The position numbers and the translations under genes are program-made. Of a stretch of DNA of 22,034 bases, positions 5,631 to 12,742 are shown one piece after another. Below the pieces are notes generated by a model that was given only the letters and a program-made list of their open reading frames with translations, was not told the origin of the DNA and did not search any database. The first letter of the stretch is position 1. Every line of letters begins with the position of its first letter. The stretch comes from a virus (Duplodnaviria; Heunggongvirae; Uroviricota; Caudoviricetes): IMG/VR virus record IMGVR_UViG_2690316286_000005. One strand, given 5' to 3'.

Positions 5631-6014
5631 TCAGTTCCTCAGGTAACAGCCAGTAGAGCCGGTACCGGGATCCGAGCCCCCGCCAGTCAGGGTCACTATT
5701 CCCCTCCGTGTCGGTAAAAAACAGGTCCCCCTGAAACGGCAGGGATCCNNNNNNNNNNNNNNNNNNNNNNNNNNNNNNNNNNNNNNNNNNNNNNNNNNNN
5801 NNNNNNNNNNNNNNNNNNNNNNNNNNNNNNATCCGTACCGGACAATCCGGTTATTATTCAGACACAGCACGCCATACAGGCACGGTTCACCATTAACAAT
5901 GATATCGATATACATCCCCGTAGTACGCTGATTCAGGCGAATGGTGCAGACCTGAGCGCCCAGTGTCACCGTAAACTGCTGGGCTTTAACGGGAGATAAA
6001 ACAATTTCCAGCAT
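5631..6014 (-). CDS. hypothetical tail protein interrupted by an assembly gap
   Basis: ORF starts with ATG at 6014 overlapping the upstream stop, then runs through 82 N at 5749..5830. Frame and length beyond the gap are unreliable. Confidence 0.3.
5749..5830. other. run of N (sequence/assembly gap)
   Basis: 82 consecutive n characters in the sequence; true length of missing DNA unknown. Confidence 0.95.
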
Positions 6015-6724
6015 CAGGTGATCCCCCTGTTCGTGGCGCTTCGTCTGTCAGCGTCTGACGGTTGTGTCACCGACGCCGTAACTGGCTGCGTTTTAACCGA
6101 TGCGGCCCCTTTTGCTTTATCGTTGTCCGTGGGAGACGACTTATCCGTACTTCCCACTGACACCTCTCCTGTATTCATTACGGTCTGAAATACCGCAGTA
6201 ACCGTCAGTAAGGTCGGACCATTATTACTTCGCATTCGGTAGTCATATTTCACAAGGTCGCAGGATGTCCATGTCTTGTCCGGCGTCTCAATATCGTAGA
6301 GTCCTGCCGTGGTACGCATCCTTTCAAGCGTTTCCAGCACATTCGTCCGCGAGGTGGTGGAAAAATTTGTCAGGTTCGGGACGGATCCGGAAAAGGCCGT
6401 CCACCCCTCTACAGTGAAAGTCACATGCAGTTCCGGCGATCTCTGGATTTTATTAAAGGTGGTATAAGCCCCCTGCTCCACGGGGACGGTGGAAACAGAA
6501 GCCTCCGCGCCCACCTCAACGACAACAAAAGAATCCGGGGAGAAAGGTTTGCCACCCTTCTGATGGGCACCTGCCGGATCATTCCGTGCGTAATAAATAC
6601 CGAATGACGGTGCCAGTACACTGTTAATGAGTCCCAGGACACCGCCGCCACGAACCGCACTCAGTACGTTACTTTCACTGAGCGAAAAGTTATTCAGGGA
6701 AATATTATCGAAAGAAAAACTCAT
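6014..6724 (-). CDS. tail protein downstream of tape measure (function unassigned)
   Basis: 236-aa ORF with ATG at 6724 overlapping the tape measure stop (ATGA), indicating translational coupling. Confidence 0.55.
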   Translation of the reverse strand: MSFSFDNISLNNFSLSESNVLSAVRGGGVLGLINSVLAPSFGIYYARNDPAGAHQKGGKPFSPDSFVVVEVGAEASVSTVPVEQGAYTTFNKIQRSPELHVTFTVEGWTAFSGSVPNLTNFSTTSRTNVLETLERMRTTAGLYDIETPDKTWTSCDLVKYDYRMRSNNGPTLLTVTAVFQTVMNTGEVSVGSTDKSSPTDNDKAKGAASVKTQPVTASVTQPSDADRRSATNRGIT

Positions 6725-8742
6725 CCTGTTACCCCGCTGGAATAAACCGACACAAGCGCCGAATTCGTGATACGCCGACGTGCGTCATCGGTAATACCCT
6801 TCACATTGTCCGACGTTGTGGTGACATTCAGTGTCCCGATATGCGTGGTTTCCGTTACGGTGGACTGCGATACAGGCGCAGGATGGCGCGACCGTATGGC
6901 CATTGCCGCACCCGGATAAGGCAGGTTCGCCAGCACCCGCGGAATATAGTTGCGGGTCTCCTCCGGAGCAGCAGCCAGTCCCTTACGCTGAACATTTCCC
7001 TCTCCCCAGTTATATGCCGCCAGAGCCTTAGCCAGATCGCCATGAAAAAAACGTATCAGGCCACCAAGTTTTCTCGCGGCGGCATCAGCGGCTTTTTCGG
7101 GATCAAAGGCATCGTTCCCCCTCAGACCAAATTCACTGGCCGTCTTCGGCATGAACTGAAACAGTCCCATCGCACCAGCAGGTGAGACGGCAAACTGATT
7201 ACCACGGGATTCGGTGATCGCAACGCTGCGCAGCAGTCCGGGCGGCAGGTTATATTTTTCCTCCAGTTGAGACAGTTTCGGTTGCAGCCAGCCTAACAGG
7301 GCTTCCCCGGTCTTCGTCGGTCGCTGGCGGTTTTGCATGGCATTACCGAGTTTTTCCTGCGTCGCACGCATACCCTGTAGCCAGGATTCACCGAAGGCTG
7401 CTTCCCTCCCGGTTGCCTGAGAAGCCTGAGTATCCAGCATGCCCTGCTGCCATACTGTGGGTGATTGTGCCCGGGTGATGTTGCCAGGCTTTTCTCCGGC
7501 ATCCAGTTTTGTCTGATACGTCTCCATCTCTTTCTTATTGAAAAAGAAAGTCCCGTCTGAAGCCCAGAAAAAACCATGTGAATCCAGCCAGTCCTTATTT
7601 TCCCTGCCAACAATGGATGTCAGTAATCCGTCAACAACCGGGTAAAGCGCCGTTATCGCAAAAAGAAGGCCTCCGGGGCCACTGAGGGCTTTTGTCAGCC
7701 CCCGCACCCATGACGCCACTTTCAGCCCGATCAGCGTAATAATGACATTCTGCCAGCCCCCCAGTTCTCCGGCAGCCTTATTCGCCAGGGAGGCCACTGA
7801 CTCAACGTCATTCAGAAATGTGGTGATAAACCTGTTCACTTCCTCCGGATGTTGCTGCATCCAGTCACCGAGTGTCTCCAGCCAGTGGCTGAGCTTCAGC
7901 GCGTACGGCATCAACGCGGTGCTAATCGTCATCCCGATGCCGGACCAGGTCTGATCGAGCTCAACAAGCTCTTTTCGTAGCTTACGGGCCAGCGCTGTAC
8001 GCCCCGGCGTAACCTGCGAACGGGAAGTAAATTCGTCCACATCTTTCAGCGCATGACCGGAGCCAAGAAACTGCTGTCCGGCATAACTGAAGCCCAGCGC
8101 GTTGCCGTAGGCAGTTTGTTCGGACTTTGTCAGTCGCGGAAAAATAACCGCCAGCTTGCGCATGATGGCTTCAGTGCTGTCAGTATTTAAATCAACACTA
8201 ATGCCCGCCCTGGCTGCAACCTGAAACAAATCCTGTAACACAGGATCAAAGGACCTTCCGGCTCTGAAGGCCGCTTTTGCATTTGCAAGCCGGGAAAATG
8301 CCCCAGACATTTCCCCTTCATCAACATTATTTGCCCGCGCAGCCCGTAACCATCCGTCCAGATTTCTGGCCTTCATGCCAAAAGCATCGGATTCCACGGA
8401 CAGACGGTTCAGATCACGGGCAAAACCTGTTACCAGGTTCTTCAGCCCCCCCAGCGTCAGACTGACACCCGCAAGAGCCAGAATCTCGCTACGGATCCCT
8501 GAAAAAAAACGGGACGCCCGTTTCCCGGCATCTTCCATTCGACGGGCCGTTTTATCAGCATCTTTTCCGGTTTTTTCCAGTGATTCACTGGTTTTCTTCT
8601 GTCCCTGACTGAATGTGTCAGCGACACCTTCCATCACCGTCGTGAGCCGGTTAAGGGCAGCATGTACTGCCTGTTCCCCGGCAGTAAAGTCCCTGTCATC
8701 AATCCCGAGGGACAGAACAAGCTCATCAAGTACCTGCGCCAT
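6721..8742 (-). CDS. tail tape measure protein with C-terminal lytic transglycosylase (SLT) domain
   Basis: 673-aa ORF, ATG at 8742 preceded by AGGAG. Helical N-terminal half, hydrophobic segments around residues 325-375, and SLT-like motifs ITESRGNQFAVSPAGAMGLFQF and AAYNWGEGNV around residues 500-585. Confidence 0.8.
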   Translation of the reverse strand: MAQVLDELVLSLGIDDRDFTAGEQAVHAALNRLTTVMEGVADTFSQGQKKTSESLEKTGKDADKTARRMEDAGKRASRFFSGIRSEILALAGVSLTLGGLKNLVTGFARDLNRLSVESDAFGMKARNLDGWLRAARANNVDEGEMSGAFSRLANAKAAFRAGRSFDPVLQDLFQVAARAGISVDLNTDSTEAIMRKLAVIFPRLTKSEQTAYGNALGFSYAGQQFLGSGHALKDVDEFTSRSQVTPGRTALARKLRKELVELDQTWSGIGMTISTALMPYALKLSHWLETLGDWMQQHPEEVNRFITTFLNDVESVASLANKAAGELGGWQNVIITLIGLKVASWVRGLTKALSGPGGLLFAITALYPVVDGLLTSIVGRENKDWLDSHGFFWASDGTFFFNKKEMETYQTKLDAGEKPGNITRAQSPTVWQQGMLDTQASQATGREAAFGESWLQGMRATQEKLGNAMQNRQRPTKTGEALLGWLQPKLSQLEEKYNLPPGLLRSVAITESRGNQFAVSPAGAMGLFQFMPKTASEFGLRGNDAFDPEKAADAAARKLGGLIRFFHGDLAKALAAYNWGEGNVQRKGLAAAPEETRNYIPRVLANLPYPGAAMAIRSRHPAPVSQSTVTETTHIGTLNVTTTSDNVKGITDDARRRITNSALVSVYSSGVTG

Positions 8743-9354
8743 TTCTGTTCTCCTGTATCACCTGTTCGTTATGGGCATCCACATGAATTATTTCCAGCAG
8801 ATCCCATAAGTCCTGCACACCAAGGACAGAATCCAGTTCAGCTTTTGAAGCCTTACCGGAGGAGATAACGGTCGCAATGGTACGGGGAACATTAACGTAA
8901 TCCACCACCCCGAACGGTCTGTCGGGGTCGAGATAACGCGGGGGGATATCTAGCTGACGACGGTAGCGAAAAAATCCACATGCAGCTTAAAGACCTCCGC
9001 ACGCAGATTAAGACGGGTAATGATTTCTTCAATATCCTCTTCAACAAGCGGTCTCCGGATGCTGCGTTTTTTCGGATCGGGAACAAACTGCACACAGTCC
9101 ATCATTTCATCCATCAACGGACGCGCCTCATCAGGCGGAATTTTCGATAATGCTTTCAGCCCTTCAAGGGCAAGCGCAGCCATCCCCAGACTACGAACAT
9201 CATCCGGTAACTCCACGCCACCACGCCCCATTGCCATAATGGCACGCATCGCCCACCATTCCGCCTGTGAGGCAGACATTTCGGTAAGATGAAATACCTT
9301 GCCCTTATCCCGTCCCTGACCTTCAATAGTGATAAATTTCTCTTTACGGGCCAT
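8726..9354 (-). CDS. putative -1 frameshift fusion product of the tail assembly chaperone (G-T-like, about 209 aa)
   Basis: The -1 frame is open from 8986 to the stop at 8726 and is reached from the chaperone frame by slippage at TTTTTTC; the extension overlaps the tape measure start. Confidence 0.45.
8950..9354 (-). CDS. tail assembly chaperone (G-like)
   Basis: 134-aa ORF between tail tube gene and tape measure gene; contains slippery heptamer near its 3' end. Confidence 0.6.
   Translation of the reverse strand: MARKEKFITIEGQGRDKGKVFHLTEMSASQAEWWAMRAIMAMGRGGVELPDDVRSLGMAALALEGLKALSKIPPDEARPLMDEMMDCVQFVPDPKKRSIRRPLVEEDIEEIITRLNLRAEVFKLHVDFFATVVS
8968..8974 (-). promoter_or_regulatory. candidate -1 ribosomal frameshift slippery heptamer T_TTT_TTC
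   Basis: Plus-strand gaaaaaa at 8968..8974 reads TTTTTTC on the minus strand, in register GAT TTT TTC within the chaperone frame, 6 codons before its TAG stop. Confidence 0.45.
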
Positions 9355-9800
9355 CAGTTAAAAACCTCCGGAGTAATGGTTTCCCACTCAATAACCGCCT
9401 GCCCTGGCTGCAACGTACGAGCTGCATCAGGCAGCGCTTTCCATTGTTTGAGTACGCCATTCACGCAGGTATATTTACGGCCAATCGCCGGAAGCAGGAC
9501 GACAGCGTTACAACGGAATACAGCCCGACTGGCCCGGGATGTGGTTGACCAGGTATCAAAAATATCCCGGCTGGGGGAATCCGGCATGATATGAAACGTC
9601 TGGATAATGTTGCTGTACACAAATCCCGCGGACAGTTTACCGTCAATACCGCGGGCAGTTTCCGCCAGTACCAGTGGATCGGTGCCATAAACGTTATCTG
9701 TTGCAAATCCCTGAAGTCGTACGCCGGAGGGATACAGATTATTCACTGTCAGCGTGATAATGGCATCCGCCGCAGTGATGGTGTTGTTGTTACCCGACAT
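9354..9800 (-). CDS. tail tube protein (DUF3277-like)
   Basis: 148-aa ORF immediately after the sheath gene; ATG at 9800, stop overlapping chaperone start. Family name recalled from sequence character and position. Confidence 0.65.
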   Translation of the reverse strand: MSGNNNTITAADAIITLTVNNLYPSGVRLQGFATDNVYGTDPLVLAETARGIDGKLSAGFVYSNIIQTFHIMPDSPSRDIFDTWSTTSRASRAVFRCNAVVLLPAIGRKYTCVNGVLKQWKALPDAARTLQPGQAVIEWETITPEVFN

Positions 9801-11285
9801 TTACTGGACCTCCGTGGATGCAATAACAAGTTTCTGGATACTACCGCCGTCACAGTACCAGAGCGTACAGGACGGACTGCTACGGGTTGCCCGCAAAGAG
9901 GGAAGCATATCGCCGATATACAGGTAATAGCCGGTGGCAAACAACGTTGAAGAAACATCTGCCCCCACAACATTGTTAATCTGTTTCTTCTGCGCCTCCG
10001 TCAGTGTCACCCCTTCACGGATCCCTCCCCAGCGTTTGTACTGCTGGATAACGTCACTCATTGACGCTGCAACCAGCGCCCGCCCTTCATTGTTGTAGGG
10101 GATCGTCTGGTTTGACTTGAATAACGCGATCACCGCCCCCTGCAAACTGGCATTCAGCCAGATTTGCCCGCAGAAACTGTCCAGCCATTTAAAATCACCG
10201 GTAATAGTGCCATCCGCCCAGTAATCTTCCACCACACTGTTTTCCGCATATTTTCCGTAGAAATTGTAACCTGCGGCGATCAGCGCATCATAATCGCTGC
10301 CACTGGTAACATCAGCGGCCAGCCCCTCATACTCGCGGAACTTGAATGATACACGCCCCTCTGGTCGGACAAAATCAAGGCACGCTGCATACCCCAGTAC
10401 CGCTGCAGCCCGGTTACCATCAGTCGCGAAAACAGGTACAACAGAGCTGTAGTTATTGACAGCAATTATCTGGTAAGCGATGTGTTCAGTACTGCCTTTT
10501 ACTCTGGCGTTGCCGCTGGTTGTCCATGCCACATAAAAGTAACGCTTGCCCTGCCCGTTTGCCCATGCAGAAAACGCCAGGTGTTGCTCGTCAGTGACCT
10601 CAGATACCGTGGAAAAACCCGCCCATTGCTGGGAAGCGGCCTTAATGGCTGCCATTGTGTCAGGGACATCAGATACAGGCGCGCCCCGGGATATCACCGC
10701 ACCGGTGTTACTGGTCATCTTCAGGAGTTCTGCTGCCGATCCACTGCCGAACGTTATCGTGGTACTCCCGGGTTTCGCCCCGGCGACAGTAATGACAAAA
10801 GCATTCTGTGTGGTATCGAATACCACTGTAGCCACTGCTGCGGTCAGCGCTGTCTGTAGTGCCGTTGCAGCAGCGGCGAAGCTGGCGACACCGTTAAAAT
10901 TCACTTCAATGCTGACGCTTTTCCCGTTAATACTCAGCATCAGCGTGCCGGAAAGTTTTTGTAGCTGTTCAACAGTCGCGCCCTTAAACGAACCGCTACG
11001 TAACCAGGCCGCCGATGGGGCAGGACTGAAACGGGAAAACAACAATTGCCCCGGCGTCCTGGTGGCATTTTTGAAGCCCTGGAAATAAAGCTGAGCGCGT
11101 GCGTACTCATCGGATAATGCACCAAAATACGCGGCCACATCATCCGGAGAGGAAAACGGAACCACAGTGCCGACCGGAAGTAACGGATTACTGGTCAACA
11201 GCAGACCGTTAAGATCGACGGCATTACCCGCCACAGCCAGCACACCGGGATTTATCTGTACATCTTTACTGAGTGGAATTGGCAT
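9801..11285 (-). CDS. tail sheath protein (DUF3383-like)
   Basis: 494-aa ORF, ATG at 11285, followed by tube, chaperone and tape measure genes, which is the canonical contractile-tail order. Confidence 0.7.
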
Positions 11286-11811: not shown

Positions 11812-12161
11812 ACAATAACCCTCGTCCAGTCAGGCCAGATTTCCGGTACCTCAATCACCAGCCACGTTTCATCGCCAATAACAAATTTATCGCCTCCCTG
11901 TTGCCGGGCACGGTTAAGCCCGCACCAGTTACCATCGGTATACAATGTGGCGAAAACTCCCTGCTGGTTAAGATTATCAAGATGACGTAAATCAGCCTGG
12001 GTGACAGCCTGCTTTTGCACCCTGACGGAAACCGGATCTTCATACTCAGGTACGCGGGAATAATCTGCCTGCTGTGTACTCCCGCGGGAACGATAAACCA
12101 GCGCGTCTGTAAAGGGATTTACCCGACGTACTGCGCCGGAAACAATACCGTGAAAGTTCAT
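11796..12161 (-). CDS. hypothetical head-tail joining protein
   Basis: 121-aa ORF with ATG at 12161 overlapping the upstream stop (ATGA). Confidence 0.55.
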   Translation of the reverse strand: MNFHGIVSGAVRRVNPFTDALVYRSRGSTQQADYSRVPEYEDPVSVRVQKQAVTQADLRHLDNLNQQGVFATLYTDGNWCGLNRARQQGGDKFVIGDETWLVIEVPEIWPDWTRVIVCLQV

Positions 12162-12742
12162 TTTTTGCCCCCGTCTACAGAATAATCAACGCTGTCCATC
12201 ATATGTCCGGTTTCAATAAGCGGGTTGTTAAAACCCTTTTGCCGGGCAGTGGATGCAGCGTTGGGCGGACTTTCCCAGTCGCGAACAGACATCTGCAACT
12301 GCCCTTTGATATGTTCTCCCATACACACCAGAGCGGTCGCAGTATCAAAATCATTCGCCCGTAATAAGGTCGCCATTTTTTCGCCCCATTCGGGACTTTT
12401 ATGTTCGATCATCTTACGGAAGAACGGACGGGGGGGAATGGTGACCGTGTGCTCAGGAATAACCACATCCTGAACAAAATTCCCTTTACCGGCTTTGACA
12501 AAGCGGTGCCCGGTTTCTCCCGTTTTTTCGTTATAGCGAAAGTGGAGCGTCTGCTCACGGGCGGGTATGACCGCTCTTCCACCAAACTCCTGAACTGCGG
12601 CAATATAAGCCACTGACGTACCGTCAGGGTAAGTTGCTCCCTCAAGAAAACCCACTTTGAGTTTTTTACCCAATGAAAGGTTCGCGGCAACCTGTTTCAG
12701 CTTCTGCCGGAACTGTTTGCCACCTGTGACTTTATTTACCAT
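12158..12742 (-). CDS. head-tail connector / tail completion protein (HK97 gp10-like)
   Basis: ORF-track start at 13012 would overlap the upstream gene by 280 nt; the ATG at 12742 is preceded by GGGAGG and overlaps by only 11 nt, giving 194 aa. Family name recalled, not searched. Confidence 0.5.

Follow-up and report, generated by a model that had tools for sequence, protein, structure and literature searches.

The DNA analyzed here is a stretch of 22,034 nucleotides (nt), referred to throughout as the window, from a tailed virus (Caudoviricetes; IMG/VR record IMGVR_UViG_2690316286_000005). On its minus strand it carries the gene for a tail assembly chaperone, denoted G, whose 3' end overlaps a conserved open reading frame (ORF) in the -1 frame, denoted T. 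Very probably the two are joined into a GT fusion protein by -1 ribosomal slippage at the heptamer T_TTT_TTC at 8974..8968, close to the end of G. The observations behind this proposal are the anatomy of the locus, the conservation of the slip site and of the frame relationship between G and T, a coding signature in the -1 frame and a possibly chaperone-like fold predicted for G.

Results

The G ORF (9354..8950, minus strand) runs from an ATG at 9354 to a TAG at 8952-8950 and encodes the zero-frame product of 134 amino acids (aa) and 15.2 kDa. The slippery heptamer T_TTT_TTC (8974..8968, minus strand) is spelled by the codons GAT, TTT and TTC, which are G codons 127-129 and encode D127, F128 and F129; translation of both frames places five sense codons (ATVVS) between the heptamer and the TAG of G. 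The site falls in a zone of 34 nt (8986..8953, minus strand) in which the zero and -1 frames are both open, bounded by a -1 TAA at 8989-8987 and by the TAG of G. The -1 frame itself is open from 8986 to 8726. Slippage would add to G residues 1-129 the T extension (8968..8726, minus strand), that is, 80 codons reading RYRRQLDIPP...NGAGT followed by a TGA at 8728-8726, with as predicted product a GT fusion of 209 aa and 23.7 kDa having the junction ...LHVDFF/RYRRQLDIPP.... The T frame overlaps the tape-measure gene, whose ATG (8742) lies 17 nt inside the end of the frame, and the stop codon of GT stands 14 nt beyond the tape-measure start codon. A preliminary description of this DNA had placed TTTTTTC at 8968..8974 in exact X_XXY_YYZ register, upstream of a -1 frame open from 8986 to 8726 for about 80 codons and overlapping the tape-measure start; these coordinates were verified on the minus-strand reading, with exactly 80 codons after the slip and an overlap of 17 nt.

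How surprising such a site is can be gauged from the window itself. TTTTTTC occurs 19 times against 4.3 expected, 13 times on the plus strand and 6 times on the minus strand. This roughly four-fold over-representation probably reflects codon or dipeptide composition (GAA AAA), the 13 plus-strand copies among the 19 reading GAAAAAA on the coding strand of minus-strand genes. The 25 minus-strand genes hold 34 real X_XXY_YYZ heptamers in register in about 6,900 codons, or some 0.5% per codon, and the chance of finding one inside an 11-codon zone with both frames open is about 5%. Among the heptamers with a readable -1 frame, only that of G leads into a long -1 ORF (80 codons versus <=41 elsewhere); a TTTTTTA at 5721, just 3' of a run of 82 N described below, has an apparent -1 frame of 29 codons, two codons beyond its own stop. 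The bare heptamer is uninformative, and the window alone makes the case for a frameshift suggestive, not proven; the decisive support comes from comparison with other genomes rather than from statistics within the window.

For this comparison a megablast search of the phage collection with the window nucleotides gave no match, and relatives were reached through tblastn with the conceptual fusion, which matched 130 phage records. Fetched phages, 12 bacterial genome loci and 80 IMG/VR loci were combined into a sample of 101 loci with 70 distinct G..T nucleotide sequences. The fusion matched in two pieces, lying in two frames, in Pantoea PA-1, Burkholderia phiE131, Pseudomonas Orimi01, Klebsiella RCIP0114, Aeromonas 2_D05, Edwardsiella GF-2, Acetobacter phiAO1 and Acinetobacter WCHABP1, and every intact locus of the sample has its T domain in frame -1 with respect to G. 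The hosts are Enterobacterales, Pseudomonas, Aeromonas, Acinetobacter, Burkholderia and acetic-acid bacteria, covering gamma-, beta- and alpha-proteobacteria, at protein identities down to 33%. A slippery U-rich site is present at the homologous ...LHV[DG]F[FL] position in all but one lineage: TTTTTTC in most homologues, TTTTTTT in three, TTTTTTA in Orimi01, GF-2, AP22, WCHABP1, Acjo_20 and phiAO1, and GGGTTTT in phiE131 and Aeromonas 2_D05. Prophages of Acetobacter, Komagataeibacter and Gluconobacter have a G of 38% identity, yet share the identical GTG GAT TTT TTC and the conserved -1-frame T domain. The preliminary description had proposed conservation of the heptamer and the open -1 frame in homologous clusters as a check, and such conservation holds across three proteobacterial classes. 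The exceptional lineage is that of Klebsiella phages RCIP0114 and PDP110P1, to which we return in the Discussion; PDP110P1 is filed as 'Lambdavirus' despite a tail module of the present myovirus type. Two single loci were considered as counter-examples and rejected. In one of these, L024 (IMGVR_UViG_2537561977_000012), three homopolymers differ in length from those of the window, which puts T in frame 0, probably through sequencing error; the other, L084, has a W34* nonsense codon in G. The T frames of two further loci, L050 and L103, are truncated.

The homopolymeric nature of the site, six T in the window and seven in three homologues, would also suit slippage of RNA polymerase, which would add a U to some transcripts that are then translated in the standard manner; bacteria are known to reach -1-frame products through transcriptional realignment on runs of T or A (review PMC5009743). 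The arrangement is kept, however, where there are only four or five T, as in GGGTTTTC (phiE131), GGGTTTTTC (Aeromonas) and GCTTTTG (Klebsiella phages). Efficient slippage by bacterial RNA polymerase needs runs of about 8-9 or more, against which six T is short. What is conserved, moreover, is the X_XXY_YYZ register including the third base of codon 127, which matters to tRNA re-pairing and not to a polymerase. We consider polymerase slippage very improbable.

Selection on the nucleotides was assessed in 47 distinct enterobacterial-type G genes, in which 44 degenerate codon columns are invariant in amino acid. The third base varies in 41 of these columns, and the only ones in which it never varies are codons 127, 128 and 129, that is, GAT, TTT and TTC; if three columns are invariant, exactly this trio would by our arithmetic (1/C(44,3)) come up by chance about once in 13,000, for a subset that left out the TTTTTTT variants, which still slip. 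Entropy by position changes frame at the same place. As far as the heptamer, G-frame third positions vary at every codon; from about 22 nt past it the variable positions are the third positions of the -1 frame, and L-D-I-P-P is conserved. Past the slip, G ends in a short tail with little conservation (ATVVS, TAVAG, SPAAS...), and the -1-frame peptide right after the slip, R/H-x-R-R-x-L-D-I-P-P, is conserved. Purifying selection is visible both on the T frame and at the heptamer.

Residues 1-131 of G match positions 1-131 of the 134-position PHROG 1932 profile (3.2e-59), a family named 'tail assembly chaperone' by annotation rather than from a tested function. The T extension matches PHROG 3976, of unknown function (5e-32), and the match of the conceptual GT fusion to PHROG 18181 (a 170-aa family) extends over the junction. 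Pfam and NCBIfam searches with G, T and GT gave no family match, PDB sequence and profile searches with the chaperone proteins gave noise only, and Phage_TAC_15 (PF21822) was touched weakly by only 3 of 20 homologues (best E 0.0033). The protein works like the curated Pfam and NCBIfam chaperone families without being a sequence member of them. When the predicted fold of G, modelled alone, was ranked against 48,164 PDB chains, 2ob9, 3klu and 3fgx came 3rd, 4th and 19th, all three being solved tail assembly chaperones (PMC9603447). The profile match and the location between the tube and tape-measure genes bear out the earlier assignment of the ORF as a tail assembly chaperone, with which the fold ranking is compatible. 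The three structures, HK97 gp13 (2OB9), B. subtilis YqbN (3KLU) and Rbstp2171 (3FGX), are reportedly the work of Pell and co-workers in 2013.

In a further group of relatives the tblastn match to the fusion is in one piece, namely in Burkholderia phages Bcep781, Bcep43, Bcep1 and BcepNY3 and in Ralstonia phages Bakoly, Adzire and relatives. In Bcep781 gp47 (170 aa) and Bakoly 2B_00022 (186 aa) a single continuous ORF follows the GT of the window colinearly through the junction, which reads LHVAFLTDREPLDIP and LHAGFVVGRKPTELP in these proteins versus LHVDFF/RYRRQLDIPP here, and neither contains a run of TTTT. Each precedes a 136-aa G-only paralogue (gp46 and 2B_00021, respectively) that ends at the position homologous to the stop of G (gp47 and gp46, L011 1522-2441; 2B_00022 and 2B_00021, L010 1495-2462; context in L104 5755-9135). 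Bcep781 gp46 matches PHROG 1932 (5e-31), and the tape-measure gene gp44 (PHROG 9570) lies two genes downstream. These are true homologues, with the same PHROG 1932 short form, the same PHROG 18181/3976 match over junction and T, and the same place upstream of the tape measure; they differ in that there is no frameshift, the long form being a continuous ORF without the T run and the short form a separate adjacent paralogue. Because Bcep781 and Bakoly encode the fusion in this way, the joined G and T polypeptide appears to be a real protein of this family, and the slippery sequence is missing where nothing requires it. The two-gene layout looks like a gene-duplication alternative to the frameshift. 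We suggest, tentatively and as a possibility short of an even chance, that the chaperone family holds both solutions, a stimulator-free U_UUU_UUY frameshift in most lineages, that of the window among them, and, in Bcep781-like (Naesvirus) and Bakoly-like phages, adjacent GT and G-only paralogues in its place.

These comparisons also bear on the way the region is annotated, PGAP giving T as an independent gene, a 60-aa ORF (WP_000228829; 8908..8726, minus strand) that starts at GTG 8908. If this annotation were right, the upstream heptamer would be incidental, and it has in its favor that PGAP and other pipelines call such a separate 60-aa coding sequence in the window, Pantoea PA-1, Aeromonas 2_D05, GF-2 and AP22, and that a GTG-GTG pair is available at codons 21-22 of the -1-frame extension. 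No Shine-Dalgarno motif was found before GTG 8908, however, and ATG is wholly absent from the T frame of the window; of 53 distinct T frames, 20 offer no ATG, GTG or TTG ahead of the conserved core, and a Shine-Dalgarno motif is present in almost none. The stretch of 20 codons before the GTG is itself conserved as -1-frame protein with -1-frame third-position variation, a pattern that begins 40 nt upstream of the PGAP start, and the T-extension peptides QLDIPPR and YLDPDRPFGVVDYVNVPR lie upstream of or across GTG 8908. Single-ORF homologues join both parts colinearly, and several phage records leave this stretch of about 200 nt unannotated because no ORF can be called. We judge an independent gene to be highly improbable and take the 60-aa ORF most likely to be the mis-annotated C-terminal part of GT. 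Sources name the same ORF 'hypothetical protein' or 'transcription elongation factor GreA', the latter in several NCBI records (E. coli, Salmonella, Shigella); the GreA label is a propagated mis-annotation.

The window is a prophage carrying a contractile-tail module, in which the tape-measure gene comes directly after the G/T ORF pair. Upstream, on the same minus strand, are the genes for a 494-aa tail sheath (9801..11285; Pfam DUF3383, 2.2e-140, and PGAP annotation in an identical E. coli prophage) and a 148-aa tail tube (9354..9800; Pfam E217_Gp32, 1.8e-17), the TGA of the latter overlapping the chaperone ATG (TGATG). Downstream is the gene for a 673-aa tape-measure protein with a lytic transglycosylase domain (6721..8742, minus strand; Pfam SLT, 8.8e-26), beyond which a Pfam-type domain search gave Dit-like, Pam3 gp18-like and E217 gp41-like baseplate proteins. 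The hosts are E. coli/Shigella-type: a region of 1.3 kb is 99.8-100% identical in 9 of 5,426 complete E. coli genomes, and the whole window is about 99.6% identical to the prophage copy of E. coli CFSAN029787. In CFSAN029787 (L001 22213-23976) the tail-fibre end adjoins a gene for ipaH, an E3 ubiquitin ligase effector of the type III secretion system, together with transposase fragments, which suggests that the element belongs to the ipaH-carrying prophages found in Shigella and enteroinvasive E. coli. The 82-N run (window 5749-5830) lies inside a baseplate-plug ORF (5631-6014) and is an insertion relative to CFSAN029787, in which the flanks are contiguous, rather than masking of equal length, and it inflates this ORF from 100 to 127 codons. 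The gene at 12158-12742 (minus strand), which follows a DUF4054 gene, is an intact 194-aa ORF from ATG 12742 in the window, and its counterpart in CFSAN029787 (L001 9160-9743) is a 'frameshifted' pseudogene according to PGAP.

In a decaying prophage the T frame might be a non-functional relic or merely open by chance, with only G being made. Damaged copies such as L084, L050 and L103, and the mark 'frameshifted' that PGAP gives to a nearby gene in the CFSAN029787 copy, fit such decay. The layout is nevertheless retained in lytic, plaque-forming phages of many genera; T frame and heptamer bear the selection described above, and G, T and the tape-measure gene are all intact in the window. We regard a relic as extremely improbable.

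Discussion

We infer slippage on the ribosome, its efficiency and the roles of G and GT from the above observations, as follows. Most ribosomes would translate the 134-aa G and terminate at the TAG at 8952-8950. In a minority, the tRNA-Phe on UUU in the P site and the tRNA-Phe on UUC in the A site would both re-pair one base upstream, after which the ribosome would read CGC at 8968 and continue through the 80 codons of the -1 frame to give the 209-aa GT. If the proteins act as in lambda G/GT and P2 E/E+E', the tape-measure protein would be coated by G and by the G portion of GT, the T domain would bring in the tube protein, and the efficiency of frameshifting would set the G:GT ratio. The heptamer of the window appears to work without a dedicated RNA stimulator. 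In E. coli, U_UU.U_UU.C gives more than 0.1% frameshifting without one, and it belongs to the H_HH.U_UU.Y class, which is among the most efficient and is used by insertion sequence (IS) elements (PMC4066793).

A number of points weigh against this proposal. All of the support is comparative or computational. The Klebsiella-phage lineage (RCIP0114, L005 1950-1977; PDP110P1, L106, G codon 152) has only a T_TTT tetramer, GCT TTT GTA; it still retains the -1-frame T domain, and U_UU.U is among the three tetramers most prone to shifting in E. coli (PMC4066793). The sample behind the three invariant third bases was picked by the presence of T_TTT, only the disrupted L084 failing, and D-F-F is conserved as protein, which by itself favors T-rich codons, an effect for which the synonymous-site test controls. 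The downstream stimulatory stem-loop that the preliminary description had suggested was not found on folding: four windows folded against shuffled controls gave z values of +0.1, -1.0, +0.3 and 0.0, pseudoknots being outside the folding, the downstream 70 nt gave z +0.17, and the only good hairpin in the window starts about 28 nt 3' of the heptamer. As an upstream Shine-Dalgarno stimulator we considered and rejected a GGAGG that lies 19 nt upstream, outside the effective 6-17 nt, and is not conserved, its wobble positions being variable. Finally, the prophage in its present host may be defective, and the signal may persist by descent rather than through current use.

Other candidates for a stimulator fared similarly. 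A cis element of the dnaX/IS3/IS911 type, that is, a hairpin 5-9 nt downstream or a Shine-Dalgarno-like sequence 6-17 nt upstream, was not found, pseudoknots again lying outside the folding, and because there is no such Shine-Dalgarno-like element the efficiency of frameshifting may be low. Folding of 24 homologues gave nothing significant or positionally conserved in the enterobacterial clade, an Rfam scan of 8500-9500 gave no relevant match, and a promoter and terminator scan gave no signal between G and T on the coding strand. Collision of ribosomes at the nearby TAG was not supported as a stimulator, since 15 nt is, by our own estimate, too short to place a trailing ribosome on the heptamer. 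The acetic-acid prophages (L020, L021 and L023, at about 1890-1970, just after GGATTTTTTC) differ in this respect. Their slip site is identical, G runs on for 28-35 codons, and a strong hairpin begins about 3 nt after the heptamer (z about -3.9, -3.8 and -2.1), whereas the enterobacterial clade, with its TAG five codons on, has none. As weaker additions to the proposal, the TAG that gamma-proteobacterial members keep almost invariably five codons past the heptamer may be part of the signal, and the alpha-proteobacterial members, with their G tails of 28-35 codons, may carry the strong hairpin in place of the nearby TAG.

The main value of these results lies in annotation. G is named 'hypothetical protein' in a cluster of 289 members, and the chaperone is 'hypothetical' in hundreds of Enterobacterales genomes and many phage records; T is left unannotated, given as a 60-aa protein in its own right or wrongly labelled GreA. 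A collection of 15 billion proteins does not contain the exact 209-aa fusion, and among the matches listed all 120 relatives of the fusion are 120-140 aa long (nearly all 133-135) and cover <=64% of the query. The conserved slip site, LHVDFF at the protein level and T_TTT_TTY at the nucleotide level, would let annotators join the ORFs across Obolenskvirus, Kunmingvirus, Gofduovirus and related prophages. The most interesting by-product is the set of frameshift-free, two-gene relatives: if both genes of Bcep781 and Bakoly are expressed as chaperone isoforms, they offer a natural experiment on whether the frameshift is kept for the G:GT ratio or merely by descent. Within the library that was searched, no paper was found to describe this frameshift for Bcep781, AP22/Obolenskvirus or DUF3383-sheath phages.

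The G/GT frameshift as such is textbook knowledge and occurs in nearly all long-tailed phages (Xu et al. 2004; review PMC5009743). The window agrees with the preliminary description in having this conserved arrangement and shows those features of the class that sequence comparison can reveal, namely a tube gene upstream, overlapping ORFs, a -1 frame, a slip site in register, a T frame lacking start signals, and conservation. In that class two proteins sharing an N-terminus are made at a set low ratio, both needed to build the tail yet missing from virions; for such a pair of products in the window the continuous-ORF homologues would give indirect support. As in lambda G/GT (Levin, Hendrix & Casjens 1993; Xu, Hendrix & Duda 2004, 2013, 2014; summarized in PMC5009743), the ORFs overlap and are flanked by the major tail (tube) and tape-measure genes, the -1 slip falls a few codons before the first stop, the long form has a common N-terminus and an extension ending at the tape-measure start, and no strong RNA stimulator is evident. 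Lambda differs in having a G_GGA_AAG heptamer and a siphovirus tail, as opposed to U_UUU_UUC and a contractile tail, and its proteins have no detectable sequence similarity to those of the window in Pfam, NCBIfam and PDB sequence searches. Levin and colleagues are said to have found in 1993 that the lambda shift likewise proceeds without downstream structure. The preliminary description had set the U-rich heptamer apart from the GGGAAAG of lambda; the sequence is correct, and such a site is not unusual for contractile tails, as TTTTTTG of P2 (PMC3091744) and GTTTTT (PMC12846349) illustrate.

P2 E/E+E' shifts -1 at TTTTTTG with no downstream hairpin to give products of 91 and 142 aa (Christie et al. 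2002, per PMC3091744), and it resembles the window in its contractile tail, U-rich heptamer, -1 shift and the lack of a hairpin found downstream. The P2 heptamer ends in G rather than C, the window proteins are longer (134 and 209 aa) and unrelated in sequence, and the tail module of P2 is of the FI/FII type, that of the window of the DUF3383-sheath/E217-gp32-tube type. In Pakpunavirus (Vandenendeviridae) and Andersonviridae, TAC-N/TAC-NC carry a poly-T slip motif, GTTTTT, that is conserved where the chaperone gene ends (3'); the -1 frame stays uninterrupted in divergent genomes, and annotations routinely give the downstream ORF, wrongly, as a hypothetical gene of its own (PMC12846349). These phages belong to another lineage, use another protein family and are absent from our tblastn matches; the claim made for them rests on comparative evidence of the same kind as that for the window. 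Judged by sequence comparison, the window very probably presents a genuine but ordinary programmed -1 frameshift of the lambda G/GT or P2 E/E+E' type, previously unannotated, that brings one further lineage under the near-universal G/GT rule by a mechanism that is not new.

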